DNA of 43,127 nucleotides from Reclinomonas americana ATCC 50394 (taxonomy: Eukaryota). Below, piece after piece: positions 1-43,127 of the stretch (the first letter of the stretch is position 1; every line of letters starts with the position of its first letter). Position numbers and translations under genes: made by a program. The DNA lies in contig PS015502.1 in assembly GCA_048213135.1 (NCBI GenBank), positions 39,993 through 83,119 of the forward strand, read 5' to 3'. The notes under the pieces were generated by a model. That model had not been told where the DNA came from. It worked only from the letters and a program-made list of their open reading frames with translations, and did no database searches.

Positions 1-1080
1 AACGAAGAGCGCTGGTGACAGCACTGGGAACGCACAATGCAGGGTTACGTCGGCGTGCGCGCACACGTGTGTGTGTGTGCATTTTGCGCTGTGCTGTTGT
101 TGATTGATGATTGTGTGTCGTCCTCAGGGCTCCGTTTACCATTCAGCGATTGTGTGAGTTGCTGGTGGACCCGCATCGCCACTATCGCAGTCTGCGCAAG
201 TTTGTGTGCGCTGTGGACAAGGTGTTGAATGTGGTGTCACCGTCTACCGTGGCCACGGCGACCGACGACGAAATGGTGGCTGTCGACGATTCGGAGGAGC
301 CCGCCGTGCCCATGGAGGAGGAGCCACCGGTGCGTCGGCCCCTCCCCCTCTGCTTCGCCGCATGCACTCATATTGTGCACAGGTTACTCCCTCGGTGCCA
401 TCGCCGTTGCCGTCACCCGGTCGCACATCGTCGCTCTTCTTCGGAAGCCACAGTCCGAATCGCGTGCCGCTGATTCCACAGCACGCCATCAGCGAGCCTC
501 ACCCGTTGCATCACCAGCCACCACCTGAACCGTTCGAGGCGAATCCGTTGCCTTTCGAGGCTCACATGCCGCTGGATCCGCACCACGCTTCCGGCTCCGG
601 CAGCTCCAGTGGCAGCACCTCACCACTTCTTCATCGACCGCAGTCGACGGCTTCCATGCGACCGTTGTCGCCGCCACCGTCGCCGCCGCGAGGCCTGCTC
701 GGCGCCAGCCACGTGGTACACCCACCAATGTCACCACCGCGGCTCCTGTCACAGCAGCAGCCGCCAATGTCGCCACCATCTCCCAATGGTTTGTTGCTTC
801 CCCCCCCCCCCCGTGTGTGTTGACAAGTGATGGAATGGGGCCTGACGGCAACAACAACGCAGCACCAAGCTCGCTCTTCCACACACAACACCCGCCATCG
901 GCGGTGGGTGCTCTCTGGCGGGCTCATGTTGCCACGGTGGAGGAGCCCGACGAACTGGCTCCGGTTGAAATACGTCCTCGACCGCCACCACCGCCGCCGG
1001 CAGTACAGCAGCAGCAGCAGAGTAGCAGCATGTCGGCGAGTGGGGACGCGGAAATGCGCGATGTCCAAGCGCCGGAATAA
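1..1080 (+). CDS. PPP4R2: Serine/threonine-protein phosphatase 4 regulatory subunit 2 (5' end outside the window; multi-exon)
   Basis: The spliced frame reads ...ALGTHNAG|APFTIQRLCELLVDPHRHYRSLRKFVCAVDKVLNV. PFTIQRLCELL is the hallmark of the PPP4R2/Psy4 family. It is followed by a low-complexity P/S/Q-rich tail ending at TAA 1078-1080. Introns at about 44-127, 330-381 and 789-863. Confidence 0.85.
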
Positions 1081-1152
1081 AGAGAATGCAAAGTTGGTAC
1101 GCTCTCGCCGCGGCAGGACACACACACACATGCACCGCGGTGCGAGCAGCGA

Positions 1153-3684
1153 ATGAGCGTAGCCTTTGTCGACAATCCAGTGTTTGCCGAGTACCTCGAT
1201 GGTACACGCAGCAGCGCGTACGCTCGTGTGTGAGCGGAGTGGACAACTGAGTGTGCCCTCTCTCTCTCTCTCTCTCTTTCTCCCTCATCGCAGAGTTGCA
1301 GCAGTCTGGCATTGAGCTGCCCGCCGTCGACATTGTACCAGCACATGCCTTGCAGCACGAGTCCGAGGAGAAGGAGCTGGAGCAGCACGCACGAGACGAG
1401 GTCAGATGCTTCGCGTGCGTGTTGGAGAGTGCGCACAAACTCAATCAACGTGCGCCTGTGCAGAGCTTGTCTCGCACGCCACCGTCGATAGCACATGTTG
1501 CACCCGCGGTACCTCGTTCTGATGGACTGACTCGTCTCTGGCGGAGGCGCCGAGCGCATGGTGCGGACTGATGAATGCAGGATCAGTTTCTTCACCTTGT
1601 CTCCGTGTGTGACCATTGGCTGCGGACCAGATTCTGTGTGGCAGTGGAGTGCGGTGGCCCCCAGCGGCGAGCAGCAGGTCGTGGCCAGCGATTCCACCGA
1701 CGAGGGCCAGCTGCAGCTCGTGGTCACGTGGCCGGTGACTGTCGCAGTGATCGCCGTGGTGCTTGCTCTGCAGTCAGAGTGCTGGATCTGTGTCTGCGTC
1801 GTCATGGCGTTGTTTGCGTTGCTGCTGGCGGTGGATTGGGTGCGTTGATTCGGGAAGGATGCAGCGTTTGTTCATGTTGTGTTGACTGAGTTTGTGCAGT
1901 ACCGGTGGGTGTTGCGGTCGTGTCGACTGGCGAATGTCGCGGCAGTAGATCGGCATTTGAGTGCGTGGCAGGAGGCAGAGCGGGCACTGGATGCGTGTGC
2001 TCGAGCCATTCGAGATGTGGAGGCTGTGCGTCGAGGATACTCGCTGTTGCGTTCTGCACTGCCCCTCTCATGTCCATCAAGTGCGCTCACGAGCCGGTTG
2101 CAGTCGCTTCTCAGCCCCCATGTTTGTGCCCGATGGCAGTGAGCCGTCGTCGCAGCCGCTTCGCCGTGAAGTGTTGGGTATTGTGTGTGATCTGCGCTAC
2201 AATGTGTACCAGCGCCTCGGCGCGCTGCTGCCCGAGCGGTCACTGCCCGCATCCTCGCCTGTCGGCGCTTCGGAAAATCTGGAGGACATTGGCCACGTGT
2301 TTACTGAGGCCGTCAGCACAGTGGCTGCCGTCTTTGACAGTGACCGCCTGTGCGTGGCGATCTCTCTCTTGCCTGGCCTGCATGCATCTCTGCTGGCCAT
2401 AGTCTCTCGATTGTGGCAAGCATCGCGATTGGCGTGCACAGCGACTGCGGACGAACTCGCTGGCGACGATGCGAGCGCACTCAATGTGCTGCGAGTGCAT
2501 GCCAGCCAGTTTGGGCGCGAACTGGCAGCCGATGTGCGCGAGATGCAAGTGCATTTGTGGAGCATCGAGAGTCTCCTCGGACAGACAGCAAGCGCGGACT
2601 CGTCCGCGACACCGGTCCAGGTCATGTGCGAGCTGCTCGATCGCTGCCTCCGCATGTCGCAGGCGTTTGCGATGTGGCAGGATCGCCTGTGGCCGCAAGG
2701 CCGTGTCGGGAGTGCTGCTGGCACCTCGAGTACCTCGTCGTTGCGTGACGCTACAATGACCGAGAGTGTCCTTTTGTTGAATGCACGCTCACGGCTAATG
2801 CCGCTCACGTAGCACCTCGGCTGCACTGGCGCGTCTGAACCCGTGGACGCAATACGTGCAAGCGGTGCTGGGAGACGGACTCGCGGATAGAGTATCGCTG
2901 TTGGCGGCGGATTGTTGCGCTGCATCACGCACCATCGTGTGCATGGTGACCTTTCTGCTGATGACATATGGCGATAGATTTTGCGAGGACGGGAACGGCG
3001 GTCGGTCGCCCAAAGCCGATACCAGCCGAGGGAGACGAGCAAGAGGAGCACGCAGCGGGCGGTGACTGGAGAGCACCGCTGGCGAGTGCGCGTCTCGCAG
3101 ACCTGCTGCAAATGGAGACGACAACGTTGGAGGTCGAGGCACTTGAAGTGGTGAGACACTGATGCGTGCAGTTGATAAATCTCTGGTGGTGCATGACCGT
3201 GGAGGGGCGCGTGCTTTCACAGGCGACAGAGAGTGCACGGCGTGAGGCGGCTACCGGTTTGTGTTTCTCGTGTTACCGATGAAAGTTCGCATTGTGCTCA
3301 TGCGTCTTCTGTCCCCTCGGCAGGCAGGTTTGCGTTGCCGCCTTTGCCGATGCAGTTCGCCATGCGAGCACAGCGGCGAGAAGAGGCCAGCATTGATGTC
3401 GACGATGTTGCGGCCGCCATGACCTCAAGCATGCCCAGCAGGGGTGCACCTACCACCCTCGGCGACAGTGACACCGATGATGATGATGCCGGCGCCGCGA
3501 GGTTCGATGTTTGTGCACGCACTGTGCCGTCTCATTTTTTCGACTCACTGCATTTCCATTCAGCGGCAGTCCGCTGCTGATGCGCGAACTGAGTGCCGTG
3601 CTGCGCAATCGTCGGGAGATTCGTGAGTCACGAATCGAAGCAGGACGTCAGCCAGCAGCACCACCGGCGCCACCTGCGTCGTGA
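1153..3684 (+). CDS. Vezatin-like membrane protein (multi-exon)
   Basis: N-terminus MSVAFVDNPVFAEYLD|ELQQSG. Two adjacent hydrophobic helices (VVTWPVTVAVIAVVLAL, CWICVCVVMALFALLLAV) are followed by ALDACARAIRDVEAVRRGYSL, which resembles the vezatin I(Q/R)E(V/T)ExxxRG(Y/F) motif. C-terminal LLMRELSAVLRNR; stop TGA 3682-3684. Family assignment is by motif recall. Confidence 0.6.
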
Positions 3685-3827
3685 GCAAGCGACGACAAAC
3701 CCCCGCATGCACGGACTGCACTTGTCATATTGTGCAAGTGTTCACTCAAGAGACCTGGTCACACCGAAAGAGTGTGCCAAGTCATCCCCAGCAGCTCCAT
3801 CTAAACGCATCACGTGCGGCAGAAGGC

Positions 3828-6243
3828 TTAGATAGACAGCGGTTCATCCTGCGAGAATCGAACACACGAAATAAGTGAACAATCGCATCGCGTACTGGGA
3901 AACAACTCCTACAGTGAATGTACTCACTGCGCGTCCCAGAGCGCCAATGCCAGACGCCGACGACGACGACGAGCCACCAACTCGCACCGATGCACGTGAG
4001 TCGCCGCCAGACACTGTCGACGGTCTCTGCTGCACGCCACAAGATAACCATTGAAGTGAGTGACCTCTTCTTCTGAGTGCGTAGCAGCACAGCGAGGGAG
4101 TCGGCACACACCTCCGCAGTGGGCGAGCCGCGAATCATCTCCAGCAGTCGGTTGCACTGCTCAATCATCTGCACAAGCAAAAAAAGTCAGCATATACCCC
4201 CGACAGTCTTCAACCACGAGTGCACACACACACACACACACCTGGTCGGCTGAATCGCTCTCGTCGCGTCCCGACAGGCTGAGAGCATTGGCCGTGGCCC
4301 ACACCTTCTCGCGAATGAATCTCCGGTACTCGGCAGTGAGGTTCTCCAACACGCCCTCGAAACGAGCCTTCTGGAACTCGAGGCACGTCTCGTGCTGTAC
4401 CAACGGCCGTTAGGGAAGGGGAGAGGACAACATAGCGAGGAAATAAATGAAGCACGGACCTTCTTGATCTCCTCGTCGAGCGCATTGATCTTCTTGGCCG
4501 AGTCGGTCTTTTGGCGCTTGGTGATTGCATCGGCAAGGTCGCCAGAGGAGAAATCGTACAGCTGCTGTGCCTCGGGGCGGCTCTTGATCCAATCCTGCAT
4601 ATACACACACCCTCGTCAACCACACAAACAACTGCGAGGGAGATTGCTGCATGACGAACCACAAAAGAGCCAGAGGAGCGGTCGAAGAAATCGGCCACAT
4701 CACCCACATTTCGGTCCAGCGAGAATGCCTGGTACGGCAGGGGTGCAAGAGTCAGACACGCACGTACTCTGCAGAGTGAGATGAAACCGATTGCCACCAC
4801 GCACCGTGGCCTCCATGTCCTTGCCCATGGCACCAGTGATGCGATCCAGCTCGAGCCACAGCCGCTTCGTCGTGTCGTCACTCTCGTGAATGCCGAACGA
4901 CTTGAAGCCGTCTGCCACGCTCGTCATCGACTCGGCCATGGCTGCTCTCCGTGTGAGAACGATATAAGGAATGGGCATCACATGCTGCCCGCTCACCGTG
5001 CTTGCCCTTGGCCAGCTTCGAGCACACCTGGGAGAGGTGGTGCAGATCCTTGCCCACGGCCTCCATGTACTCGATGGTGGACTGCTCCTTGCCTGACAGA
5101 CGCAGTGGATCGCCCTCGCCGGGCTTCGAAAACACGCCCTTGATCTTCTTGAGGCCCATCAAGAAGGACGACTTGGTGCTGCGCTTGCGCGACTCGGTGA
5201 GCGCCTTGGCACGAAGCACGGTCTCGGAGAACAACTGTGCTGGATGCACGCGTGTCAGCTCGCTGCACGACTCACACGCATGCTGCATGCCGACGCAACA
5301 TCGGCCGAGTCCGAGATGAAGTGACGCAGATTCTGCGACGAGCGCAGCTGGTGGTGATCCGCAATCTTTTCCAAGAAGAGCTGCAGGCCTGCGACGCGCT
5401 GATCCTCAAACGTTGACGACAGCCGGTCTGTCACCGGCACACAAGGGTGAGCGAGAGCAAGAGAGGGAGAGGGGAGAGAGATCGCGTCATGACACACCGA
5501 CAAGAGACGAGTCGGGGGTCGGCGGAATCACAACGCCAGTGAACTCCTCCGCCAGCACCGAGCGCAGCCACTCAAAGTCAGCATACCGGCGGTACACAGA
5601 CAGCTGTTGGCCGGCGCCCTCGCCTTGCACAATCTGCGCACACGCACGCACACCATGAGACGAGCGAGGACAGATAGAGAGAGAGACACCGCCGCGCCAA
5701 CCTGCGTGTCGATCTGATAGAACGTGGTCTTGTCGATCTTGGTCAGCGACACCGCAAAGCGCATGAACGGGTCGCCAAACGTCACCAAGCAACTGCGTCG
5801 CCCGAGGAGCACAAGTGAATGCGAGGTCACGCGGGGCGGCATGTTGTTGCAGAAATAAGTGGACATCTCTCTCTCGCCCTCACTCATTCAGCAGACAGCG
5901 TGGTGATGAATGCCACTGTGTGTGTACATGCATGTGTGCGTGTGCACGCAACGGCCGCTGCTGCAACACCGGAGAGGCGAGCCCCGACGCCGAGGCATAC
6001 ACCGAGGCGCGCGAGCCAGCTGCCGAGCCACTCACATCACTCCATCCAGGTGCCGACGACGATGACGCCTGCAGGCATGCACAAGAGACACAGAGAGAGA
6101 GAGAGACAAAGAGAGAGCGCGAGACAGTGAGTGAGCCATTTCGCCCCCCACGCCAACTCTCACACACACACGCATGCGCGCACAACAAAGAGCAGGTGAA
6201 AGAGGGAGAGCGTAGAGGCAGACAGGCGCTGCACACGCACCAT
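3828..6243 (-). CDS. Sorting nexin, PX plus BAR (Vps5/SNX1-like architecture)
   Basis: PX motifs TFYQIDTQ, VYRRYADFEWLRSVLAEEFTGVVIPPTP and QRVAGLQLFLEKIADHHQLRSSQNLRHFI, followed by helical BAR-like exons (CLEFQKARFEGVLENLTAEYRRF). The start ATG (6243-6241) is inferred to be followed directly by an intron; inferred stop at 3830-3828. Confidence 0.85.
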
Positions 6244-6328: not shown

Positions 6329-7886
6329 ATGCAGTCACCGCCTGACTCCAGCGATGATCGTTCCGGAGAGTTCTTCCGAGTTGCGTCTCTCACACTCTCA
6401 CACACGCACAGGCACACACGCACTGTTCATTGACACGCTCGTCATCATCGCAGTTGGGCTCGCGGATTGGCGAGTATGGCATCCTCGCAGGCTCTGCGTC
6501 CACGGAGCTCGCTGAGCGCACTGCCACCGCCCTCGGCATTCACCTCATTCCCGCCAAAGTCTCCCGCTTTGCCGACGGAGAGGTGTGTGTGTGTGTGTGT
6601 GTGTTTTGGGAGTTGTTCCGCGACAACATCTACAGCACAAACTCATCTCCGATCGTCCGCCTTTTTTTCTTTGACAACACAGATTGGCGTCAAGGTGCTG
6701 GAGAATGTCCGTGAGAAGAACGGTACCGTTGTGTGTGTGTCTTGTGTGGCTTTGCTTTTCTCCGCTTTGCATCTGATGCACCTGTATCTGTAACAGTGTT
6801 TGTGGTGCAATCGACGGCACCGCCGGTCAACGACAACCTCATGGAGTTGTTGCTGCTGATTGATGCGCTGCGTCGTGCCTCGTGCAAGGTCTCTACTGTT
6901 GATGTGGTTCGTCTTTTTTGCTGTTGTCATGGCGATCTCACATGGACCGCCATGCAGAACATTTATGCGGTCATTCCGTATTACGGGTACGCGCGACAGG
7001 ATCGCAAGACGCAGCCGCGTGTGCCCATCTCGGCGGCCTTGGTGGCCAAGATCATTGAGGGCGTCGGCGTGCATGCTGTCATTGCCGTCGACTTGCACTG
7101 GTACGCTACCACGCTGACTGATGACGATGATGTGTGCGTTCGTGTCGCTGAACCTCCGAGCCCACAGTGGCCAGATTCAGGGCTTCTTCGAGCGACCAGT
7201 CGACAACCTCTACGGCAGTGTGGTGATCAAGGACTACTTCCTGCAGCCCGAGTTCCGCGTGCCCAACCTGGTGGTGGTGTCGCCCGACGCCGGTGGTGCC
7301 GAGCGCGCCGACAAGTTCCGCTCGTACCTCGTGCAGGAGGGATTGGATGTGGGTTTTGCCATCATGAACAAGACTCGCCCGCGTGCCAACGAGGTGCGCT
7401 GTGTGGTGTTTCTCGCTACTGCAATAAGAAGAAAGGCGATGCGAGTCAACTGAACTTCGTGCGCGTGGCAGATCTCGCACATGGAGCTGATTGGCGACGT
7501 CAGTGGCGCGACCGTCATTATTGTCGATGACATGATCGACACTGCCGGCACTCTCTGCAAGGCTGCGCAGGTGCTGCGTGATGCCGGTGCAGGCGACATT
7601 TACGCGTGCGCCTCGCACGGTCTCTTCAGCGGCGAGGCTGTGGAGCGCATTGAGGCCAGCGTGCTTTCGAAGGTGTGCTTTCGTTCACCAATCATTTCAA
7701 TAGAATGCGTTTCGCTCATCGCGCCCGACCCAGGTGGTGGTGCTCGACACCGTTCACACGGAAAAGACCAGCGAGAAGATTGTCACGCTGTCGGTGGCAC
7801 CCTTGGTCGCCTCCGCCATTCGCCACGCCGGCGAGGGCCGCTCTGTCAACCAGCTTTTCGCCATGGCTGGTGTCTCCGGCCACTGA
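6329..7886 (+). CDS. PRPS: Ribose-phosphate pyrophosphokinase (class I PRPP synthetase), 8 exons
   Basis: Motifs [78 protein letters not shown] and ASHGLFSG are joined in frame by GT-AG introns. ATG 6329; TGA 7884-7886. Confidence 0.96.
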
Positions 7887-8302: not shown

Positions 8303-9002
8303 GTGTGTGTCGGTAGTTGTCTTCTCACCCTTCCGCATCACGACACGCAGAAGGGCAACTTTGATTCGTCGGCCACAGTCACCGCCGGCCTTCTCAAGGA
8401 GGTCCTCTGCATCGACGGTGCATGCATCACGGCCGACCTCGATGGCGACCTGCAGTCACAAGGCAAACAGGTTCGGAAATGACTTGTCGGTGCGCTCGTG
8501 CGAGTGTGCACTGCTGACGATGTGTGTGCGTCTGTTGCGCACAGACTCTCATCTTCCTGATCTTTGGCGAGATTGCGGTTGGTATCGCTCTGGCATTCTA
8601 CATTGTGTTCTGGCTGAAGGGATACCGCTTCCTGTGGAAACTGCTGGCCATTCTGTTCCATGGTGCTGGCGTCGCTCTCTGCTTCATTGGAGTCATCAAG
8701 TACACCACGGGTGTAAATCGCCAGGGTGGCAGCTGGGACTACTCGTACATTGTCACGTGGTTGATTACCCTCGTCGGCGCCCTGATCGTGTTCTTCCCGC
8801 TGTTCTTGAGACCGACGCCCGAAGACAAGATGAAGCGGCCGCTGTCGGAGCACATGGGTGGACCCGAGCGGAGTGACACGCTGTTGCGTCTCTGTCTCTT
8901 GCGTTCTCTCGTCGCGTCTCCTGCTTTGTCACTCGCCCTCACTTTCCGTCGCGTGACTGCAGCATGGTGCCTGCAAAGCATCCACACAGCGATTCCGTGT
9001 AA
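8037..9002 (+). CDS. Claudin/PMP22-superfamily-like four-TM membrane protein
   Basis: TM1 (VFFFSFLGLVVFIVAIQAWMM), then a loop with PHW...GLLKEVLCIDGAC (W-GL-C-C pattern), three further TMs, and GGSWDYSY before TM4. The inferred last exon gives ...PHSDSV* (TAA 9000-9002). Confidence 0.6.
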
Positions 9003-9118: not shown

Positions 9119-12100
9119 TCATGGTGGTGGCGCGGCAGCTGACGCCGACGGCGGCTTGGCGGTGGCATCCTGGTAATGGTGATTGTAGTCGAGCCGCACG
9201 AGCAAGTCTCGCAGGTGTGGCTGACTGCGGTAGCGCCGCTCGTCGAGACGCGAGAGCACCGTGACCAGAAAATTGGTGCACTCGCGGAACACATGCTGAC
9301 TCTGCGCCAGTGGCTGATGCAGCGGGTGCTGTGTGGCACGCACAGATGGATGAACACGAAAATGTACAAGTGAGCTTGACGGCACAAGAATTGGCACGCA
9401 CAATGGTCAACAGCTCCGGATAGTCGAGACAGTCACGCAAGTCCTCGCACTGGGAGTCGAATAACCGCTCAAACTTGACGGCCTCCCGATGCAGCTCGCG
9501 GAACACTTGCTGGAGCGAGCTGGCCTTCTCGTTCAGCAGACATCTGCGCGCACAAATACACGAGCATCGTACCGTCAGTGACACACACACAGACCAACAG
9601 CCAGTGGCAACGACAAGAGGCGTCACCTTTGGAGGGCTCGATTCAGGTAGGCCTCGTGCAGGTTGCGCAGCGCCTCCACCGACTGCACCTGGTCGAGTCG
9701 CTCCACAAAGTCCGACCAGTTGACATCCAGCACTTGCGTCATGAGATATTGCTGCATGATGCTGATAAAGTGTTGCATCTCGTGGCGGAACAGCGACAGC
9801 TGTGTAGTGAGGCCCGAATGGTTCATCTTGAAACCGGCCTCTCGCAGCTTCACCCACATGCGCTTGATTGCCGCAGACAGTGCCATGTAGCGCATGAAGA
9901 AACGGAAGAGCACATTGTACGCTTGCAATGTGCGCTCCGTGATCACCACATTCAGAGGCCAACCGACACAGTAGTCAACTTCGAGGCAGTCCATCAGACT
10001 GAGATCTGTATTGGGTGAAAAGGAATGAGCAAACGAGACGCACGATGCAGCCTCGCTGTCGAACGACTCACCGTCGACTGATTCGAGTTCGCTGAACAGC
10101 GGACGCAGGCGGAACCGCAATCGATGATGATGTGGCAACGACGACTCGTAGTTCATGCTCTTCAGGCAGCGAGTGAACACGGCCTGCACGTCGAGGTGCC
10201 ATGGACTCGCCGAGGTTCGTATCTGCCCCCAACAACAGGTCAACAGCCCTGTTCAGCTCCCGTCCAACTAGAAACCCTTGAGACGAGCAAAAACACACAC
10301 CGCAGTGACAAACTCGCTGGCAAACATGTCGAACAGATCACCCTGTTGCGTGAGCAGGTACCGACGGAGAGACTCAAGGTGCCCAGCCAAGTCGACATCG
10401 TTGATGAGGAAATGAAGCGCGGCCTCCTCCACTGCTTGTCGCCTGTACGCACGCACACACAGCCGAGTTAGCTCCATGGTCGTATTACATCGGAACACCG
10501 AGACACATAACTGCGCCATCAGTGGACGAATCACGTTTTCGTGAATCACCACGTCCAGCGGCACCTCCAGATCCACACCATAGTCATCGTGCTCCAGCTC
10601 ATCATCATCGCCACGGCCATCGTCGTCGTCGTCCTCATCGTCGCCACCGTCGTCATTGTCGGCAATGTCACTATCGTCGCCACCGGCATCGTTGGCGATT
10701 GCTGCTACAGCGTCAGCTGATGGTGCTTCTGATGCCTCCGGTGGAACTGACTGCGCAGCAACAACAAGCGGGGCCGGTTCAGCGGCGGACAGCGACTGCA
10801 ACTCGCTGCGCTGCACGACCTCGTCCACAATCGATCGCAGAGCAGAAACCGGCGTGGACGCAGCCACCATGACTGCCACCGCACTCGGCAGCTCGCCGTC
10901 GTCATCATCCGCCAGCTCAATGTGCACAGAGCCAGCGACTGCAGCGTCGCTGGAAGCCGTAACCACCTCCGCTGCACTGCTGTCGCCACCACCAGCGACG
11001 GTAGCGATGGCGATCACAGTGCCCGCCGCCTGTTCGGTAGATTCCGCGGCCGACACCTCGGGCATATCGAAGCTTAGCCGACGGAACGGACGCGCCAACG
11101 GGCTCCCACTGTCGCTGTGGACAGCATCGCCTCTGGCGACGGCAGCCAGCTCTGCTTGCAGTCGCGATTCTTCCTCGCGCAGCATCCGTCGGCGCTTCTC
11201 GGAGCTCTCCAATCTTCTCCGTCGCCACTGACTTCGAGCTAGTTTGCGTGCACTCTGTGTACGAGAGATACTTGAGCACGAGGAGGCAGATAGATCATTA
11301 CCAGATCGATTACACACCCTTTCAGTCATCTCCTTGTACTCGCGCTCAATCTGCTTGCGTGCTGCGTCGAGCAGTAGGCGATCGCTCTCCAGCTGTCGTT
11401 GCTCTCGATCGAGCTCCTGCAAGCGCACCCAGAGTCAGGCGAGACAAGCTCTCCCGAATACACAACACAACAACACTCAACTTCACGCTGACGCTGCGCG
11501 GCCTCCTCGCGCGCGTGCTGCAGTTGCGCTTGATGCGCGCTCTGCATCTCCGTCATGAGCCGTCGCCGCCGTGAGACCTCCTGCATCGCCAGCTCTCGCC
11601 GTTGCTGTCGCCACCGTTTGAACAAGTACGTTTCCTGCGATAGGGAAGCACTTGCACGATGAACAACAACAGCACACACACACACGGAAGGCACATCTGC
11701 TACACAGATCGCAACTCGCTCTGCCAGTGTGAGAAGTCGTGGCACACCGGTCAGTGATGCCGGCTCTTCGCCAGTGATAGCTGTTCGGATGGTCACCATT
11801 CGGTCGCGAAGTTCGCTGGCGTACTGCTCCTCCCGCCTTGTCAGCACCAGTTGCCGCAGCACTCGCTGCTGTTGTGTCAGATGGACGATTTTCTGTGGAC
11901 TGACAGTGAGAGACGACCGAAAACCACCGCACATTATCGCGAGAAAAAAAACGACGCACATCATGTGTCAGGCCGACTCGACGTTGTTTGCTCCGCACGT
12001 CGAAGCGAGGCCGCAGAGTCTCCCACTCCAACACACATTCGTCAACATGCGCGAATCCAAGGCCCGTCAGCGAGCGCAACAGCAGCAAAGTGCGACCGGT

Positions 12101-26030: not shown

Positions 26031-27025
26031 NNNNNNNNNNNNNNNNNNNNNNNNNNNNNNNNNNNNNNNNNNNNNNNNNNNNNNNNNNNNNNNNNNNNNN
26101 NNNNNNNNNNNNNNNNNNNNNNNNNNNNNNNNNNNNNNNNNNNNNNNNNNNNNNNNNNNNNNNNNNNNNNNNNNNNNNNNNNNNNNNNNNNNNNNNNNNN
26201 NNNNNNNNNNNNNNNNNNNNNNNNNNNNNNNNNNNNNNNNNNNNNNNNNNNNNNNNNNNNNNNNNNNNNNNNNNNNNNNNNNNNNNNNNNNNNNNNNNNN
26301 NNNNNNNNNNNNNNNNNNNNNNNNNNNNNNNNNNNNNNNNNNNNNNNNNNNNNNNNNNNNNNNNNNNNNNNNNNNNNNNNNNNNNNNNNNNNNNNNNNNN
26401 NNNNNNNNNNNNNNNNNNNNNNNNNNNNNNNNNNNNNNNNNNNNNNNNNNNNNNNNNNNNNNNNNNNNNNNNNNNNNNNNNNNNNNNNNNNNNNNNNNNN
26501 NNNNNNNNNNNNNNNNNNNNNNNNNNNNNNNNNNNNNNNNNNNNNNNNNNNNNNNNNNNNNNNNNNNNNNNNNNNNNNNNNNNNNNNNNNNNNNNNNNNN
26601 NNNNNNNNNNNNNNNNNNNNNNNNNNNNNNNNNNNNNNNNNNNNNNNNNNNNNNNNNNNNNNNNNNNNNNNNNNNNNNNNNNNNNNNNNNNNNNNNNNNN
26701 NNNNNNNNNNNNNNNNNNNNNNNNNNNNNNNNNNNNNNNNNNNNNNNNNNNNNNNNNNNNNNNNNNNNNNNNNNNNNNNNNNNNNNNNNNNNNNNNNNNN
26801 NNNNNNNNNNNNNNNNNNNNNNNNNNNNNNNNNNNNNNNNNNNNNNNNNNNNNNNNNNNNNNNNNNNNNNNNNNNNNNNNNNNNNNNNNNNNNNNNNNNN
26901 NNNNNNNNNNNNNNNNNNNNNNNNNNNNNNNNNNNNNNNNNNNNNNNNNNNNNNNNNNNNNNNNNNNNNNNNNNNNNNNNNNNNNNNNNNNNNNNNNNNN
27001 NNNNNNNNNNNNNNNNNNNNNNNNN
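26031..27025. other. Assembly gap (995 N) hiding the 3' end of the BTB-SPRY gene and the 5' end of the next gene
   Basis: Run of N. Confidence 1.
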
Positions 27026-30000: not shown

Positions 30001-33000
30001 CGATGGCGCGAATGGTTTGCACACACATACAATTAGCATGACGCGTTCCCTTGTAGACTCACGTCAAGCGTTCCCCCTGGACAGCGGAGGAGGTGAATCA
30101 AGCGATTGTCATCACCAACTGGGGTGTGTATTTTGTGGAGCCAGCGTTTCAGGATTCACTGCGCGAGTCCTTCTCCTGGCATCATGTGCATCGTTGCGTC
30201 ACTTCTTCCTCTCTAACTACGAGGGTGCGTTCTCACGGCAGTGCAGGCGTCGAGATCCACGACTTCACCACGGCGCCGTCGTCGGACGGCTTTATCCACG
30301 TGCCGGATCCCGACGTCATTGGCAATTCATCCCGCAGCAGTGTGACCAATGTCAACACGACGCCTTCAGAGCTCTTGCTCCGGCCAGGACTGCTGTACAT
30401 GCGCCTTGTTCGCCTGGAGGTGCGCGCCGAGTCGTTTGCTCGTCATGGCCGCAGTCGTGTGTCACAGTGCTGGGTTGTTTGTGCTGCAGCGCGCGGCTGG
30501 CCATTCGAGTACATACATTGGTCCGCTGTTTGCCTGCGCCAACCGGAACACCCTTGTGCCGCTGGTGTGCCGCATCATGAAGCTGCTCGTCAGTCGTCCG
30601 ATCATGCCGTGGGTTGCGTTCGACCATCCTTTTGTTTGAGTTGTGGTAACGATGCCCGCTCGGAACTGACAGACATTGGTGTGCAGACCTTCCAAGACGG
30701 CGTCCCTGTTGGCGATGTTGGTGGCCCCTTGCAGCCCGGCGACACACATGGCACTCAACTGCGAGGCTCCGAGAGTCGAGTCGATCTCGACGTGGACCCC
30801 GTGGTGAATGCCATCGGCACCGAGTTGTCTACGGGTTCGTGAGTTTTTCGCGATATGTATCCTCGTCTCCGCACCAGCTAATGATGATGATGATGATGCA
30901 CGCAGATGTATTCATGGCACCACTGCAAGAAATGTGTGACACCCTATCGCACTTCCCCATCGAGTTCCAGTACGACTTGCTGCGCATGCGTGCCAAACTG
31001 GAGACCTTGGCATATCCTTTGTTCTTGCTCGTTCCCCGCTCAGTGTGTATTGTCGTGTGACACTTGACTCGGTTGTTTGCGTGCGCCACTGTTGACGTCC
31101 CGACGTTGGAGTGGGCAGACGTGCATTTGCAGATGCGACCGGTGCTGGAGACCATTCGAGATCATCCCGACCCGCAAGCTCGCAGATTCCCAGGTGCAAT
31201 CGGTCGCCTCAACTGCGCTATCGTGCCTCGCTTCGCCTCACACCACCCCCTTGTGCAGGACTGGAGTACGACGCCGAGCCAGAAACGCCAGCGCAGCGGT
31301 TGACCAGTCGTGATCGCGCCATGACTTTTTATCGCGCTGTGACGCAGCTCCTGGAGGAGACCAATCCCAACCTGGCCCGAGATTTCGAAAAGTTGAGCGC
31401 CCATGATGAGCGATGTGTCCTCATCCGCTGCACGCCAGTACTCACCTGTTATCTACGCGCAGTGATGATCCTTCGCGACCCGTGGACGAGCGCAAGGCGC
31501 TGTGCTGGGTGCGCCGTGGCGCGACAGTGGCCGATGTGATTGAGCATCTGGAGAACAATGTCGACTCGCCTGGTGAGAGCGGGGTGCTGCCACTGTGCGG
31601 AATGCCATTGATGAATTCGTTCACACGCCTTTGTTGCGCAAATGCAGAGGTGGCCACACCGAATCTGGTGATGCCTGAGAATGCTGGTACGTACCAGCCG
31701 GGGGGCGCTGCATCGTTCCACGCGTGCACTCATTGCTTGTGTGTGTTGCGCAGACATCAACGAGGAAGAAGTTCGCTTGATGTACCCACCGAAGCGAGCT
31801 GTAGTCATCAACGACACTGTGGTGTACTTCAAGTTCTACTTCCGCCCGCGCAATTCTGCGCAACTGGCGCAAGGAGTTGCGTCGCTGACTGCGTTGACGG
31901 CCACCCTGTCGGTAACTACGCACGCTCATCCGTGCGCGTGTAATAGGACGATGTGCCATACGACAGCCAGTACATCATTGTGCGAGTCGTCAACAAGTCG
32001 AACGTCGTTCTCAACGGCCCCATCCAGAGCGATGGGTTGCGTATCGGCGACGCACTACCGTACGAACCCTCGTATCGCTATGTCTTCCGCTGGAAGGTCT
32101 GTTGTTTGTCGCCAGCTGGCGCAACTGTAGATCTGTGTGCTCAACTGTAGGTAGGTGCCACCGACGGCGCTTGCCCTGCCGTCCAAGTCGTACCGACTGG
32201 AGGTGCATCACCGCAACTTGACGCAGCACGCATACTCCGAGTACTTCCCCATCGAGGTCTCCGAGGACTGGGAACGGTGGCGAGCAAGGCTCAGTGCCTA
32301 CCTAGCCTCGTTCATCGATGGCGTTCTGGGCTGTCCGTGCTCCCTTGCGGACGTGGTGGGCGCGGTCATTCAGTACGAGGAGGAACTGGCCGGCCGCATG
32401 TCGCGCCTGGTGAACACGCTGCTGTTGGTTGGTGGAACTCAAAGTGGTTTCAGGAGAGAAGGAGGTACTCATTGCTGTACTGCCACAGAAACCGTCGATT
32501 GCAGGTCTCGTGCACGGCGGCATGGCTGGCAGCCGTGGTGCGCTCATCGGTTCCACCGACTCCATACAGCGGCAGGGCACAGATTCGCGTTTCGCGGGTC
32601 GTGTTTCCACTGGTTCCATCCCAACGTGCGTGTTATGCGCTGTGTGGTTTCGATTGATTTGTGAGACTCATCATCATCATCATCATGTCGTTTTGTCGCA
32701 GGACCGTGACGGCAACGTCGTCGGGATCGCTACCAGTGGTGCAAGTTGTGGGCGAGGACGAGATTCACCAGGAGTCGCAGCGCACAAAGGCATTGCTGAA
32801 GCAGGTATCGTCATACGCACGCACGCGGAATGTGCACGCTGCCGTCTTTGACACAGATGTGATGCAGTTGCACGAGCTGCTGGATTACTTTATGCATCTG
32901 CGGCCAGTGGTTGGATCACTCGACATTATCACAGAGCACCCAAAGCTCGCCGATCGGGAGGGTTTGTGTTTGGCAGTCAGTGAGAACACAAGGGCTGTCG

Positions 33001-36000
33001 TGGTCATTTATTGACCTTTGAGGTGTGTCACCAGTGGCCACCATTCGCACGGCTGGTCCTGCGCAGCAGGCCCTGCCACCACTCGAGGTTGCTGCCGGCG
33101 ACTGGCTTCCAGGCATGGCGCCGTCGTCTGTCGGCTCGCCAATGTCTGTCGATGTGCGTTGTCGATTGGTTGATGACTTGAAACATGGTCGAAAGCTCAC
33201 TGTTTTATTCGTGTAGGGTGCCGGTATCGGCGTTGGCTTTGGTGGTGGAGGGGGCGGTTTCGGTCACTCACAGCCGCCGCGTGGAGGAGTGCAGGAACCG
33301 AGTTCGTTTTTGGCCAATGTCACATCAGCAGCGGCGGCTCCTGTGAGTTTTCTTCCGGTTGTTGTTGTTATGGTAGCATACATATCGCATGGTGCTCACG
33401 GTGGATGGATATCGTGCAGGGCTTTGGTGACGAAAGCGGCTCCGCAGCTGGCCGTGTGATGCGTGATGTGGCGCTGTCGCACGCTTCTGGCGCCGCTCCA
33501 AGCCTGGAAGTGGCGGATCCGTATCGTGTGGGTCGCGAGGCTGGTGCGGTGGCGTTCGCAGAGACCAGCGAAGCGCTGTGGCTGCTGGAGAAACGTTGAG
33601 TATCGTCGAGTGCACACACAGACACAAATAACTACATGATGCTGACTCTGATCACAGGTCTTCCGGTTCCGTCTGGCGGCCTTGCTGGTGATCGCAGCGG
33701 TACGCATCGCGAGGCTCGACCACGCGTCACCACAGCCTTTGTCGGAGAGGCGTTCAGTTATCAGATGATGCCCTTGCGGCAGCGGGTGAGATGCATGTTG
33801 CGACTCTCACGCACGTGCATGCCGAGTGCTCACTGCTGAAGATCCTCAGTTCCGTCGCGTCACTGAGCGACGCACCGAGCTGTTGGACGCCGACGAGGTT
33901 CGGTTCAAGGAGGAGCGCGGCCAGGTGGACTACCCGATCCTCGAGTACCGACCAGATCACTATCCACTTCGCGTGGAGAAGCTCGTCCGTTTCGCCTTCA
34001 ACGAGCACGTATTCCTTGCGCTGTTGGACGCCAAGTATTTCGAGTACGTGTTCCGCGTACGACCCGGTGAGAATGAGCAGGGTGAAGGGGAAAGTGAATC
34101 GGTGTGGTTGCTAACGTGTGTGCTGCAGACTCCGACCCGGATCTCATGCGCTTGGCGCAGCTGGAGGACGTGCTCAAGGCCGCTCGACCGCAACCTGATC
34201 TGGCCACAGTTGTTCGCTTGCGCCGACGCAGTGAGCGACAGTGTCGCATGTTACGGAGACACCGAATGATGATGGTGATGATGGATGACAGAGCACTGAA
34301 TCATTAGCTCTTCTGTGCAGGTTTGTCGGCTTCTTCATGCAGATTCTGCAGCAGCCGCTGCTGTCGGATCAGTTGGTGGCTGTTGTGTGCCAGTACCTTG
34401 CTGCATGGGTCACCAAGCGCTACTACATTCACCAGATCATGGCCTACTCGCACGAATGCATCACAACACTCCTTCGATTGTTCCCGGTACGCATGTGCGT
34501 ACTCCTCTGATGTTTGTCCGTGTTTCGCCAATGGCGATTGTTGCATGTGGCAGGGTTCCGACTTGTCAGTCGGACATGCGCACAAGGACGAGACAGCATT
34601 GATCACTGTGACCACCATGCTGATCAATCTCACGGCTACACCCGCTGCCGGCAACCGTGGTACGCACACACTGTCGCGGAGACTTGAGTGCCACTGTTGT
34701 TGTTCTTCTTGTTTGTCATCGTTATCACATTGTGCAGACATCTTGGCTCGCTCGCGAGGAACAACGGTCTGTGTGTCGGTCACTTTATCGATGGCCTTCT
34801 TTTTAGTAGTCTGGGCTCACTCTTGGCAACACAGGACGCACACAGCAGCCACACCGGCGATCATCTTGAGAGCGTACAAGAGGTTGCTCGTCGAAACATC
34901 TTCTTTCACGTTGCGTCTTTACGGTAATCCGTCGTCATTGTCATCCATTTGTTGTTAACAATTCGTCTCTGTCTGCAGTTGCGGCTCCTGCGACCATTGA
35001 TCAACCGGCTGTCGAAGCGCGATGTCCGGCTGTCGGCGTACCTTACCAAGCTCTTTGGCAACATTGTCAGCAACCCCGAGTCTCCCACGCGACCACTGCT
35101 GCTGCATCACGCTCGTGCGTCCACCGTGTGTGACCACCCACGGCGCACATTACCGTCAAGATTTTCTCACCGTATTGTGTGTCAGGTCTCACGGAGAAAC
35201 TGATTGCGTTGCTGGAGCCATCGCAATTCCCAACAAAGTCCAAGGAAGACATGTGGGACGCGGCGGCAAACTGCTTGTGGTGCGTAGTGCACTCTTTTGT
35301 TTGTTTGCATGTTCCACTAAAAGCTGCGTAGGAAAATGTGTCGTGCCGTCGACGACGTGCGCATGGCCGTGGTCAAGGACACCAGTGCTGTGCCATACCT
35401 CACTCGACTCCTGGCGCAGCGCTGCCCCAGTGACACCATGCGCTTGCAGAAGACTGTTGCGTCAATGGAACAGTGCTTTGCATGGTGGTGCATTTCGTCC
35501 CTCACGCTCGGCTCTTTGCCAGGTGGCGGGCACGTTGATGCATCTGTGCAAGAAGCCGGTGGTCACCGAAGACGGTCCAAACAAACAGGCCGAGGACGTG
35601 TGTCTGATGGCGCAAAACAAGGCACGCAAAGCCAACGCAGTGGCGTACCTGCTGGAGAACTTGAGGGTTTGTCTGATGATCATCAGAGGTTTTTGTTTCA
35701 GTGGACTGATTCACGATTGATAGGCGGCAAACACATCGCTCACGGACGCGGCCAACCCGCGAGAAGAGGCCGTGCAGCAGATGCTGAGTAGCATGACCAG
35801 TTTTGTCGGTAAGTCGCACTTTTGCAACATTTGTTCTTCATTTCAAGTCTCACCCCTTTTTTGCGTACAGCGTGTCTTCTGGCCTTGAGCGACAACCGCG
35901 AGTGTGTGGCACACATGTGCTCGTCGGCCTCGCCGACACGCGAGCTGCTGTCACAAATAAGAACGAAGCAGCAACGCATGCGGGACAGCTACGACACCGA

Positions 36001-36145: not shown

Positions 36146-36189
36146 CGGGATGTAGTACAACGAAAAGGTTCTTCTTTTTTATCACAAGT

Positions 36190-37349: not shown

Positions 37350-37374
37350 CTGGCGTGGTGTTCGTTTCGTTTTA

Positions 37375-38938: not shown

Positions 38939-38981
38939 GTGTTCAGAATGCAACTAATTTTCCGATGATTTTCACTTTCGT

Positions 38982-41900
38982 TCATGATGAGGGACTGGGC
39001 GCGAGTGGCGAGTGGTTGCCAGACACTGTGGAGAGGAGATTGTGGTGAGTCAGTGGGTGAGACGACGTGTAGCGTCACAAATGTGCATGTCACGCAACTT
39101 GAACGGCGAATCAGTGAAGACGGCAGCGCATCGCGCGATGTCTGGCGATGCGATCGTTCGCGTCGGTGGGCGCGCTCCGAGGCCAGGATGGACACGTCGC
39201 GCAGATGCTTGGTGTGCTGGTTGAGGAAACCGTGTTGCATCTGCGCATCGTCGTCTGCAGCTGCAGCGGTAGCAGCGGCGGCGGCGCGAGGAGGAAGAGG
39301 CGGCAGCGGCCGGTGCGCCACTGGCACTCCGGTCACGATCGCGTCGTCCACTCCCGCCCCGGCGTGTGCACCCGCCACGGCGACCACGGCGGCACCGACG
39401 CTTGGTTTCTTCGGGCGCGGCGGATTGGACGAACCGGTGCCGGCTGTCGGCGAGGTACCGGGGGGTCGGCTACCGACCGTCAACTCGACCGCGGCACTGG
39501 TGCCTTCGTTTGGCAGCTTTGCCGGTGGTGGTGGTGGCGGTGGAGCCTGTACATGGCTGGTTAGTGACCTTACGAGCCCGTCGCACGCGCTGTGTTGCAC
39601 TCTTACCTCGCACTCGACGCACTGCACAAAGACGTCGATGGTCTCGAAAAACGATGGCATCGAGAACGTCTTGGGGTCTTCTGCAAAGTAGGCGCGCACT
39701 TGGTCCCGCAGTGCAGGCACACGCGCCGCATCTGCCAGCAGACTCTTGTATTGAGCCTCGTGCCGCTGTGTGAGGCAATACAATGAGCATAAAAAAGTGA
39801 ATCGAAGCCACAAGTCTGGTCCGGCGACATGCACACCTGCAGTTCAGAGAGAACAGCCGGACCGAGTGGGTCATGCGGATGTGACAACGAGGCAGCAGCC
39901 ACCTTTTGTGCCAGTTCCCATGCCGCGCGCAATTGGTTGACAGATTGCAAGGTGACTGTGTGTGCGTGTGTGAGTTAATGCACTCGTTATTGGAGAACGA
40001 GTAAAAGAAGAGACCAACCATCAACATTAACTGCGACAACGAAACAAGAAAACGTGAGCAACGAGACGGTGATGGAGGGCGATACAGTGCGTGGGACTCA
40101 CCGGCGCGGGCGTCGACAATGTGTGGAAGCTGTGACGAGGGATCATGAGGCGTTTCGCGATTGCGAGACCGTGTGTGCTGATGAAGATTTCAAATGCACG
40201 TACCTCAGAGCGCACGTCGAGCAAATCGTGTTCCGAGTGCGCAATGTGCTCCGCGATGCACTTGAGGAGTGTGGTGCCCCGATTGCTCCTCGTTTCCCGC
40301 AGCTATTGTAGTAGTGCGTGAGGAAGAGCTGTTGTGGGTGCGAGGACGAGTGTCGATACTTCGCTCACCTTGGTCAGTGACTCCAGCTTGAAGCCAAAGG
40401 TGTTACCGCGGTGCGTGTTGCCGTTGACGTAGTTGCCGATGGCGAGAACGACAGTGAGAAGCCGCACAAGCCGCCTACTTTGCAGCACCTACAGGAGGAG
40501 GTACACACACAATGTCACCGTCGTGTGCCCACACATGCAGCGGACTACAGAGCAAGCAAACCTCGGTGCACGCAAACACCACATCTTCCACTTTCTGCGA
40601 CACCATACACGCACTGGTTAGATCGCCACGAGGGAATGCCGCAGTTCCAACACCTCCGCTCCACTCACTCTGTGCAGCTCGTCCAGTGCCGCCGCACATC
40701 GAAGGGAGAACAACCAAGTGTTGAGTCGATCCAACAGGCGTGGCACAGCAGTCACCTGATGAAGGTACCGATCATCAGTGACACGAACCTCGTCGGGGCA
40801 GCACCGGCCTGCAGCACTCACCGCTCGAATGAATCGCTCCGGAGCATCCAGCGCGTCCTCTGGTCCCTCAAAGGACTGCACGAGAGTCACCTACAAGGCA
40901 TGGACCAACATCCAGTGAGCACGTGCTTGCCATCTGCGCTGCAGTTCTTTCAATGTAGACCTCATCCTCGGTGGGAATTTGCATCGCAGCGATCAGTGAT
41001 TCCACCTGTCGTGCCAGCAGGAATGGTTAGCTGTAGGGAGAGTGGACGGACTGCTCTCGACTGCCACGTGCCTTTTCTTCGGTGAGGAAGTTGCGGTCCA
41101 TCATTGCGATTGCGTGCTGCACACGGTCGAACGGGGGTTGCTCAAAGACGCGACGGACAATGATGCCTGCAGCAAAAGTGTACACAGAGTCAGAGAGGCA
41201 TCAACGGGCACATATACGTGTGAGGCCAGCCAGTTGCTTGCGAAACTCATGTTGAGATGTCGTCGTCCCTCCAGCAGCTGCAGTTTACGCACAGCTACGA
41301 AAAAACCACGGGAGGTGACATCACTGCCGAACGCGCTCTCCAAGCAGTCACAACATTCACGCAACTTGGCTTCGGCTCCGGCGCGGGTGGCCCGTTGTGC
41401 TCATCGTGCCGCACTGGTGCTGGCGCCGGTGCATCGAGAACACCGAACAACGTACACAGTCGTGTCTCATCCAAGTGCACCGTCGACACGAGTTGGTCCG
41501 TCTGCAGTGATCGATGCGGTCAGAAGCAACAGAAGGGTGTTGAGTGAGGAGGACGGCTCACCTTTCCCAGCTCCCACACAGTTCCCTTGAGCTTCTCGCT
41601 GCACACCGATGAGAAATCGACGACGGATGAGACACCGCTGACGAGACAGCTGCAGAGAAAAACACGACTCACAAAGGCAGCTGGCTCCACTGAAAACCTC
41701 GCATCTTCATCGGCGGAGTCGGAACATTGATCTTGCGCTGTGTAAACTGGTTTGGAGCAGGAGGGGCAGGTGGTGCCAGAGGACCCGGTGGAGCAGGTGG
41801 TGCGGGTGGTGCGGGTGGTGCGGGCGGTCCAGGTGGGCCGGGTGGGGCTGGCGGAGCGGGTGGCGCAGGTGGGGCCGGTCGTGCATGCTGCTCTTGAGGC

Positions 41901-43127
41901 CTGGGTGGAGCAGGTGGAGCGGGTGGTGCTGGCGGAGCCGGCGGGGCGGGTGGTGCTGGCGGCGCTGGTGGCGCAGGTGGCGCTGGTGGCGCTGGCGCAT
42001 GCTGATCTTGAGCAGGCGCTGCGCTGTGCGACCCGTTTGCTTGTCGCTGGCTGAGGGCGTCGTGGAGTAGTTCTTGCACCGCGAGGCCGAGCTGCATAGG
42101 CGTACTTTATGATACACACGTTCGCGCCTTGTGCTCCATCAAGATTCACACACACCTTGGACTTGAACGCGGCAGCGCGCAAACGCTCAGCAACCGATGC
42201 CGGGTCCGCATGAAGCACATCACGAAGCATGTCCACGTCTTCTTGCTGGCTGAGTTCGCGCTATGCGAACGACAAAAGCAACTCAGCAATCACAGCTACT
42301 GTCGATCGAGCGCGCACGCTTCTCACCGCCATGTGCTCTTTGTGCAGCGACTGCAGCTTTGCGCGATCGCTCTGCTCGATAGAACGGTCGGTGATGCCGT
42401 GACCTGGTGGAGAACACAACATGTGAGCACCGCATCACTTTGTTACAGAGTGCAATGGACACACCAGTCTCAAACTCGCGTCCAGTACTCTGCACAAAGC
42501 GTGCCAGCGCTCGCCAAAACACGGTCACCGAATCCGGTTGCCTGCCGTGTGCGTGTTAACGAGGTGGAGAAATAGCTGTGTCGTAAGCGCACGGCGACGC
42601 AACTCGTCAACATGCTGCGACACTCGCAGCAACTCCTGCAGTGCACGGATAAAGTGACCCAGCGATTCGCTGCTGTTGCTGAGTTCCACTGCGGTGGCAT
42701 CGGCAAGAGCTGCTGGATCCGTGACAATCACACAGCGAGTTAAGGAACACATCAAAGCAGTGCATCAAATGGAAGGCAAGGCACACAATTGACAAGAGCA
42801 AAGGATATTCAACATCGAGAAAGAGCAGGTCGTCTGACGGATCTCGGACCTCCTCTAGCAGTTCGTTGAGATGCTCAGCAACTTCACGCGAAATCGCTGA
42901 CTGTGTATCGAGCTCCTCGGCGACCCTCTGTCAGTATGCATGATGATGAGCGTGTGCAAGACCGGTGTTACACGGTCTAGAGATTCCAGCAGTGTTACCA
43001 TGCAGACGTCGACCAGGTGGGCGGCACGCAGCTCGCGCTTCAGCTTCCCGCGCATGTGCTCGGCCACATCCAGCATCACGTTAAAGTACGTGATGCAAGC
43101 AAGCTGCCACGTACGCGAGACACGTTT
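38982..43127 (-). CDS. Formin (FH3-FH1-FH2); 5' end outside the window
   Basis: FH3-like LACITYFNVML; FH1 (PPA)n; FH2 PMKMRGFQWSQL, KGTVW, LLEGRRHLNMSI, VLAIGNYVNGNTHRGNTFGFKLESLTKL, GTTLL, YFAEDP...FF. Inferred stop TGA 38984-38982. Confidence 0.93.
41006..41071 (-). other. GC-AG intron in the formin FH2 region
   Basis: AAG|GCACGT donor, GCTAAC branch, CAG acceptor. Joins NFLTEEK|VESLIAAM and removes an in-frame TAA. Confidence 0.7.
41757..42000 (-). repeat. Coding 9-bp degenerate tandem repeat encoding the (PPA/PPG)n FH1 domain
   Basis: The + strand shows repeated ggtggcgct/ggtggtgcg/ggtggagca units. The minus translation is APAPPAPPAPPA... Confidence 0.9.
42721..42808 (-). other. U12-type (minor spliceosome) AT-AC intron in the formin gene
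   Basis: Minus-strand donor ATATCCTTT (42808-42800), perfect branch point TTCCTTAAC (42747-42739), acceptor CAC| at 42721. Joins LFLDVE|DPAALAD in frame (phase 2). Confidence 0.93.

Follow-up and report, generated by a model that had tools for sequence, protein, structure and literature searches.

The stretch of DNA analysed here (the window) comprises 43,127 bases of nuclear DNA from the eukaryote Reclinomonas americana ATCC 50394 (contig PS015502.1 of assembly GCA_048213135.1, positions 39,993 to 83,119 of the forward strand), with a G+C content of ~59% and N gaps at 17508-17527 and 26031-27025. In our models its introns are numerous and short, ~10 per gene with a median length of ~70 nucleotides (nt), and the ordinary donors (5' splice sites) follow a loose consensus. 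Our subject is a second group of putative donors, typified by GTTGCGT, which look like an ordinary donor displaced by one T. An earlier note on this sequence had listed 24 of them, and all 24 carry GTT[GA][CAT]G on the strand it gave (17 GTTGCGT, 3 GTTGCG[AC], 2 GTTGAGT, 1 GTTACGT and 1 GTTATGT); its remark that they mostly follow a base other than G is borne out as well, with A before 10 sites, T before 6, C before 5 and G before 3.

Gene identities were taken from Pfam matches on open frames, the formin being our own reading of exon translations. The plus strand (+) carries a PPP4R2-like gene (1-1080), a PRPP synthetase gene (6.3-7.9 kb) and a gene for a BTB/BACK protein (22.3-25.2 kb). On the minus strand (-) lie genes for a PX-domain sorting nexin (~3.8-5.9 kb), a gamma-tubulin-complex protein (9.1-13.2 kb), an amino-acid transporter (20.1-22.0 kb) and an FAD oxidoreductase (37.4-39.0 kb), and a formin-like gene (39.6-43.1 kb; 39600-43127) in which an exon near 40.4 kb is formin-homology-2-like and a long proline-rich stretch (PPAPP-type) occupies ~41.7-42.1 kb. 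Protein searches returned neither a protein of this organism nor a close relative, the best identities being 35% for a piece of the gamma-tubulin-complex protein and 57% for a piece of the PRPP synthetase. A metagenome scan gave 11 loci with at most 43% identity over long matches (53-56% over 34-36 residues); because identity is so low, these loci are too distant for intron positions to be compared. No Rfam family matched in the window at gathering thresholds.

Donor use in the gene models

Genes were modelled by dynamic programming with a 3-periodic codon model, a GT donor, a [CT]AG acceptor and an intron-length penalty, and conflicts between strands were settled by score. An initial gene finder (codon usage only, low penalties) was dropped; it produced many tiny genes and GAAG or GGAG acceptors. 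Two parses are used throughout: a donor-blind parse, to which an acceptor matrix was added and which holds zero donor information beyond GT, and a self-trained parse of 134 introns, in which a first-order donor model was learned from the parse. We define the T class as GTTGCG together with its sister forms GTTGAG and GTTACG. When run on the antisense strand the parser predicted 0 introns, hence yielded no background rate, and sense-strand non-donor GTs served as the control.

GTTGCG was prominent among the donors before any donor model was learned. It provided 11 of the 68 introns in the crudest usable parse and was the top donor hexamer among the 100 introns of the donor-blind parse (15, followed by GTGTGT with 8 and GTGCGT with 5), where the T class as a whole reached 21 (15 GTTGCG, 5 GTTGAG and 1 GTTACG). 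The modelled genes contain 2567 sense-strand GTs; 15 of the 44 GTTGCG sites were used as donors, versus 85 of the 2523 others (Fisher odds ratio 14.8, p = 2.3e-11). The same enrichment, which the earlier note had proposed as a test, was obtained when only GTT sites were compared, a comparison chosen to exclude bias from the rare GTT codon: GCG follows in 15 of 33 GTT donors and in 29 of 488 GTT non-donors (odds ratio 13.2, p = 2.5e-9). The 15 donors span all three phases (8, 2 and 5). Independent positional base frequencies, which the earlier note had named as a comparison that could refute the class, predict 0.71 GTTGCG donors where 15 were observed, and the refutation fails. In the self-trained parse, 25 of the 134 introns start with GTTGCG and 30 belong to the class, which occurs in 8 of 11 gene models. 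The share of introns put by hand at 15-20% in the earlier note thus compares with 21/100 (donor-blind), 30/134 (self-trained) and 15/62 among introns of 45-130 nt in gene models with Pfam domains.

Counted over both strands, the window holds 68 GTTGCG and 29 GTTGCGT. Within gene spans, GTTGCG occurs 44 times on the sense strand and 15 times on the antisense strand (which has 1912 GTs). Among the 29 GTTGCGT heptamers 18 are modelled donors and 5 more lie inside over-long modelled introns. Sense-strand heptamers at 14876 and 38107 (-) and at 29517 and 22964 (+) fall within modelled introns; 22964 sits in the 83-nt intron that starts at 22890, and the other three host introns measure 176-295 nt. 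Some GTTGCGT inside modelled introns may be real donors beside overlooked short exons, in which case the class is undercounted.

The dependence of the gene models on each motif was measured as the cost of forbidding it (in log-odds units). Forbidding GTTGCG cost 37.2, compared with 16.0 for GTGTGT, 8.2 for GTGCGT and 7.4 for GTGAGT; five abundant non-donor hexamers cost 0.0 each, GTGCAG 1.0 and GTGCGC 2.4. When donors were banned singly, the median loss was 2.4 for class donors and 1.5 for ordinary GT[GA]NG donors. In a separate slot test, we listed for 24 slots every GT able to join the flanking open frames via any AG. The class donor was the sole such GT at 33595 and 35456, a single other GT was possible at 6380, 34910, 13061 and 39098, and 13 of the 24 slots held no alternative donor with G at +5.

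These measurements bear on the possibility that other donors are used (conventional GTs in the vicinity, or the GC that follows three bases later, as GTT|GCGT), or that some of the modelled introns are unreal and the enrichment a by-product of modelling. The parser is imperfect, conventional in-frame alternatives exist at 44, 15195, 22890, 5299 and 11715, and the putative introns at 10511 and 11715 are in frame and free of stops, all of which speaks for such an explanation. However, the enrichment emerged without any donor model, more than half of the slots lack an alternative with G at +5, and the substitutes taken up after the class ban were mostly non-consensus (GTCTCTG, GTCGCGA, GTACTCG, GTGCCTT, GTTGTTG). 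A GC donor three bases on would moreover need an invariant GTT at the exon end, and GA, AC or AT donors in GTTGAGT, GTTACGT and GTTATGT. We consider it improbable that other donors account for the class. As judged from gene-structure statistics, the class sites are likely to be real donors.

Individual sites and intron properties

Altogether, 20 of the 24 listed sites and 10 further ones start modelled GT..YAG introns that join two coding frames. Of the listed sites, 13 were taken as donors in the donor-blind parse and 20 in the self-trained parse; the class sites added by the parses are 2740, 2914, 23891, 24086, 24695, 29209, 31392 and 31633 (+) and 5952 and 14662 (-). The strongest single site is that at 6380 (+), the GTTGCGT donor of the first intron of the PRPP synthetase gene (6380..6453, 74 nt). 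Comparison with homologues establishes this protein from around residue 7 onwards; that residue lies in exon 2, whose frame is open from 6358 and has no ATG until 6520. The only upstream ATG (6329) lies in a different frame and runs into a stop, and the two frames can be joined only via GTTGCGT or via a GT whose intron would be just 29 nt long. Because the exon-2 frame has no ATG of its own and the 6329 ATG is off-frame, the start codon requires the 6380 intron.

Among the other plus-strand sites, several GTTGCGT introns were drawn alike by the crude, donor-blind and self-trained parses: 8883..8962 (acceptor at 80 or 107 nt), 19547..19614 (68 nt), 22890..22972 (83 nt, in the BTB/BACK gene) and 27848..27929 (82 nt), together with the previously unlisted 24086..24146 (GTTGCGC, 61 nt), 24695..24749 (GTTGAGA, 55 nt) and 31633..31753 (GTTGCGC, 121 nt). 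Two more unlisted introns were found by three parses, one of them GTTGCGT and again in the BTB/BACK gene (23891..23958, 68 nt; a ban leaves only GTTGTTG 3 nt upstream), the other GTTGAGC (31392..31462, 71 nt; ban cost 8.5). Both parses support the GTTACGT intron of the PPP4R2-like gene (44..127, 84 nt), after which the next exon matches Pfam PPP4R2, and the GTTGCGT introns 2046..2103 (58 nt), where no alternative donor with G at +5 joins the flanking frames, and 35456..35522 (67 nt), one of the two slots with a sole joining GT. The other such slot is the GTTGAGT intron 33595..33657 (63 nt), where read-through meets a stop 2 nt on. At 19041..19113 (GTTGCGT, 73 nt) read-through meets a stop 17 nt on, and the flanking open frames run for 139 and 159 codons.

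At the remaining plus-strand sites, support is narrower or divided. The self-trained parse alone drew the unlisted GTTGCGT intron 2740..2812 (73 nt) and the GTTGCGC intron 28512..28580 (69 nt), for which the donor-blind parse kept the acceptor but placed the donor at GTGCTCA, 18 nt downstream; the self-trained parse also supports 30193..30246 (GTTGCGT, 54 nt), where no G-at-+5 alternative exists. The crude and self-trained parses agree on 31876..31946 (GTTGCGT, 71 nt), where the donor-blind parse chose GTCGGTA 32 nt downstream. An unlisted GTTGCGT intron found by both parses (29209..29269, 61 nt) had a ban cost of 0.0 because of an in-frame GTGTTTG 6 nt upstream. The listed GTTGCGT at 30613..30686 is ambiguous, the self-trained parse reaching the same acceptor from a preferred GTTTGAG donor 21 nt downstream, and that at 34910..34978 (69 nt) is a probable intron, where the parses drew an intron of ~200 nt with the same acceptor and one other GT is possible. 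Lastly, the GTTGCGT at 15195..15201 is unsupported as a donor: it falls in no gene model, and seven other donors that have G at +5 could be chosen instead.

On the minus strand, the gamma-tubulin-complex gene holds a GTTGAGT intron found by both parses (11417..11481, 65 nt). Three parses drew the GTTGCGA intron 12998..13061 (64 nt; ban cost 8.7, one other GT possible), and the crude, donor-blind and self-trained parses drew the unlisted GTTGCGA intron 14598..14662 (65 nt). Three GTTGCGT donors come from the self-trained parse: 39026..39098, with its acceptor at 73 or 239 nt and GTTCAAG 6 nt upstream as the one other GT; 41295..41365 in the formin gene, with its acceptor at 71 nt by eye (which exposes a short exon) or at 199 nt in the parse; and 42542..42603 (62 nt), with no G-at-+5 alternative. 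The parser probably overlooked a short exon after donor 41365. The GTTGCGT intron of the PX-domain sorting-nexin gene (5235..5299, 65 nt), drawn by three parses, is ambiguous, an in-frame GTGAGTC making a 41-nt intron possible. The GTTGCGA intron 11635..11715 (81 nt), though found by both parses, is a weak case: its length is a multiple of 3, it has no stop and several alternatives, and its ban cost was 0.4. The listed GTTATGT at 10443..10511 (69 nt) is unsupported; being in frame and free of stops, it offered no parse a need for an intron. The weak cases among the listed sites are 5299, 10511, 11715 and 15195.

In everything but their start, the class introns resemble the others. In the self-trained set their median length is 71 nt versus 70 nt, and the composition of their bodies lies within 3 percentage points per base. 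A branch-like YTSAY motif (in this window CTGAC/CTCAC) is found in 23 of 26 class introns of up to 130 nt and in 64 of 80 others, at a median of 18 and 17 nt from the 3' end, respectively, and C occupies acceptor position -3 in 27/30 versus 94/104. Because length, composition, branch-like motif and acceptor all match, we take the class, as judged from sequence, to be ordinary U2-type introns with a different start. U12-type introns have the 5' consensus [AG]TATCCTT and the branch motif TCCTTAAC near the 3' end; this type was ruled out, the class having GTT[GA][CAT]G donors, branch-like motifs as in other introns and no distinguishing k-mer. Sequencing artefacts were rejected too: an inserted T would keep G at -1 as frequent as in ordinary donors, and a G-to-T error at +1 would shift the frame by one, when in fact frames close with the cut before GTT.

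The unusual uniformity of the initial 7-8 bases could also be that of introners, a transposon-derived intron family whose conserved end happens to be GTTGCGT. Against this, an all-against-all comparison of the 134 modelled introns (blastn-short) gave microsatellite matches only and no sequence family, and no 5- or 6-mer was enriched in class intron bodies beyond what ~1000 tests would yield (best p = 0.009). An introner origin is very improbable. Both the introns and the intergenic DNA are rich in long microsatellites of the (GT)n, (CA)n and (CT)n types, which explain all the intron-intron similarity seen. Elsewhere in the window, an open frame at 29539-29910 (-), antisense to a large plus-strand gene, matches Pfam Circovirus ORF3 (E = 4.7e-6, 27.4 bits, cut-off 25), probably by chance, the antisense frame being rich in G+C.

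Register of the motif and pairing with U1

The position of the class motif relative to the cut was analysed from base statistics on 30 class and 71 ordinary donors (self-trained) and, for the -1 base, on 21 and 37 (donor-blind). G stands at -1 in 2 of 30 class donors versus 55 of 71 ordinary ones (p = 1.6e-11; donor-blind 2/21 versus 26/37, p = 7e-6), which for the class is below even the exon G fraction of 0.31 (p = 0.0015). The extra base is T only: GTTGCG was used as a donor in 15 of 44 cases, versus 0/22 for GTCGCG, 0/41 for GTGGCG and 0/2 for GTAGCG. Written out, GTTGCGT is an ordinary G|GTGCGT in which the +1 G has become T, and GTGCGT is the most frequent ordinary donor (15/134, self-trained). 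Within the class, +4 is G in 29/30 and +5 is C in 25/29, G at +6 is part of the definition, and T stands at +7 in 21/30 (ordinary +6, T in 42/71); the base after GTTGCGT-type heptamers is C or G in 22/30. The -1 composition of the class does not differ from the -2 composition of ordinary donors in the self-trained set (p = 0.16). As for the ordinary donors themselves, +3 is G in 62 and A in 9, and GTG-N-G donors nearly lack G at +4 (1/62 self-trained, 1/33 donor-blind), A, C and T being equally frequent there.

Two geometries can be set against these numbers. The earlier note had chiefly inferred a bulge, in which a standard U1 small nuclear RNA (snRNA) keeps its canonical register on the donor by looping out the additional U at +2/+3. 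In favour of this, inserting a single T into an ordinary donor does yield the motif, and human +2/+3 bulge sites are documented (68 predicted, 54 kept after curation; Tan et al. 2016, PMC4856993). In a bulge, however, the -1 G:C9 pair would persist, yet G at -1 is depleted; bases other than T are never used as the extra base; and duplex folding with ViennaRNA, with bulges allowed and a canonical U1 11-mer as partner, yields only -1.26 kcal/mol. Routine bulged pairing is thus poorly compatible with the data, and we give it little credence. A one-base shifted register, which the earlier note had brought up only as background, is favoured over the bulge, since both the depletion of G at -1 and the restriction to T fit a shift. 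What stands of the earlier interpretation is a real-looking major sub-class, about one fifth of introns, whose motif is the ordinary one displaced by one T and mostly follows a base other than G; the bulged pairing is not supported.

The best explanation as a whole, which we hold with moderate confidence, is a second 5' splice-site consensus that is read in a shifted register. GTTGCGT (more rarely GTTGAGT, GTTACGT and GTTGCG[AC]) would be the second consensus of short GT-AG introns of U2 type, about one fifth of all introns. The recognition surface, U1 first, would cover the heptamer just as it covers an ordinary donor, a placement that is most likely unchanged because the heptamer equals exon G plus GTGCGT with the G at the cut turned into T. 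The sole GT would then lie one base farther upstream, and so would the cut. The shifted geometry itself, which is drawn from the base statistics, is more tentative, and we stop slightly short of believing it.

A number of observations weigh against reading the class as a shifted second consensus. As regards the sites, introns outside the PRPP synthetase gene are ab initio calls from 43 kb of sequence, the self-trained parse may reinforce a motif it has already learned and so inflate the 30/134, and four of the 24 listed sites (15195, 30613, 34910 and 10511) were used by neither parse; in addition, an in-frame GTGAGT of conventional type lies 24 nt downstream of donor 5299. The parser also misplaced two of the six donors that homology fixes in the PRPP synthetase gene. 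As regards the register, in the noisier donor-blind set the class -1 composition does differ from the ordinary -2 composition (p = 0.005). The class prefers C at +5, where a canonical U1, with a pseudouridine opposite, would favour A: +5 holds 25 C and 4 A, versus 20 C, 21 A and 20 T where ordinary donors have the corresponding base (p = 1.3e-6), and in the donor-blind set 15 C and 5 A versus 9 C, 9 A, 14 T and 1 G (p = 0.0014). The mean duplex energy predicted with canonical U1 was -1.26 kcal/mol for the class, versus -6.80 for ordinary donors and -2.39 for a control of 400 non-donor GTs.

The two true PRPP synthetase donors that the parser missed, placed by alignment to homologues, are 6723 GTACCGT and 6889 GTCTCTA (+), neither of which has G at +5. 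In-frame GTs farther downstream of these two would insert 3 or 4 residues into a conserved stretch of the protein. GTACCGT resembles GTACGT with an extra C, and from its sequence we suggest that donors longer by one base may exist outside the T class as well.

In the shifted register on canonical U1, the class is predicted to form 6.4 pairs on average, interrupted and falling short of a stable helix; in these models a standard U1 is not predicted to hold class sites in any register. Taken with the C at +5, the weak fit suggests that the recognising RNA or protein may be non-standard. A further possibility, close to the variant U1/U6 snRNA or auxiliary factor that the earlier note had named as its alternative, is class-specific recognition: GUUGCGU would be a second code, read directly by a U1 with a non-standard 5' end, by an additional U1 paralogue or by a protein. 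It would suit a class conserved at each position from +1 to +7, with C preferred where canonical U1 wants A and with predicted canonical pairing weaker than that of non-donor GTs; variant U1 snRNAs do exist in humans (PMC3561869 and PMC10870369). When 16 variants at U1 positions 5-6 were compared in silico, mean pairing with both donor classes was strongest for G-C (-6.46 kcal/mol for the T class and -10.04 for ordinary donors), but this variant strengthened the non-donor controls as well, to -5.34 kcal/mol, and the modelled result is a hint of an altered U1, not evidence for one. Also on the opposing side, the U1 5' end is, as far as is known, nearly invariant among eukaryotes, and ordinary donors have A at +4 in 21 cases versus C in 20 although A makes up 18% of intron bodies, which suggests a standard U opposite +4. 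We regard as unlikely, though worth keeping in view, that the major spliceosome here uses two 5' splice-site codes, with the GTTGCGT introns (about one fifth) read by an RNA unlike the near-universal U1 5' end. The forms this could take, a sole U1 with G-C in place of the two pseudouridines (which would give a stable shifted helix) or a specialised U1 paralogue or dedicated protein, are doubtful to the same degree when taken together.

If one intron in five does use a fixed off-register heptamer, the genome would lend itself to studying what determines the cut site once U1 has left, how U6 accommodates the additional base between the GU and the paired G, and whether the U1 5' end can evolve. 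In practice, gene finders with a single donor matrix would then misplace ~20% of exon ends in this genome.

Comparison with known systems

To our knowledge, in the organisms studied so far one invariant U1 sequence reads 5' splice sites. Shifted-register human 5' splice sites were reportedly described by Roca and Krainer in 2009 (Nat Struct Mol Biol 16:176), and the bulge +2/+3 register, it is said, by Roca and colleagues in 2012 (Genes Dev 26:1098). Within the literature collection searched, we found no paper naming GTTGCGT or its sister heptamers as splice sites. Two features appear to be new here, by computation from 43 kb: the G-C-G core and the abundance of the class, at about one intron in five.

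In the human shifted register all base pairs are displaced by one position while cleavage remains at GU, and validated noncanonical registers in humans comprise 3119 of 201,541 sites (1.5%) (PMC4856993). The class shares with the human shifted-register sites a consensus displaced into the intron by one base (G at +6, U at +7), a U1 thought to sit one base off while the cut is made at GU, and no need for G at exon position -1 (PMC4856993). It differs from them in scale, since the human sites are isolated and atypical (1.5% for all validated noncanonical registers) whereas the class would make up ~20% of introns here (human figure from PMC4856993). It differs also in composition: the human shifted form is A-rich and pairs with the U1 pseudouridines, the shifted-register test sequence having A opposite a U1 pseudouridine, whereas the class has G-C-G and is predicted to form no stable helix with canonical U1 (human data from PMC4856993). 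With the human +2/+3 bulge register the class has in common one extra nucleotide between GU and the equivalent of the +5 G (PMC4856993). Unlike sites of that register, the class is depleted of G at -1 and only T serves as its extra base.

A further parallel is with U12-type introns, which also present a second, rigid 5' consensus without exon-side preference beside an ordinary class. The 5' motif of the present class is, however, not [AG]TATCCTT, and its branch-like motif, the distance of that motif from the 3' end and its acceptor are ordinary. Physarum has undergone a large U12-type expansion, and provides a precedent for a second class that takes a large share of the introns.

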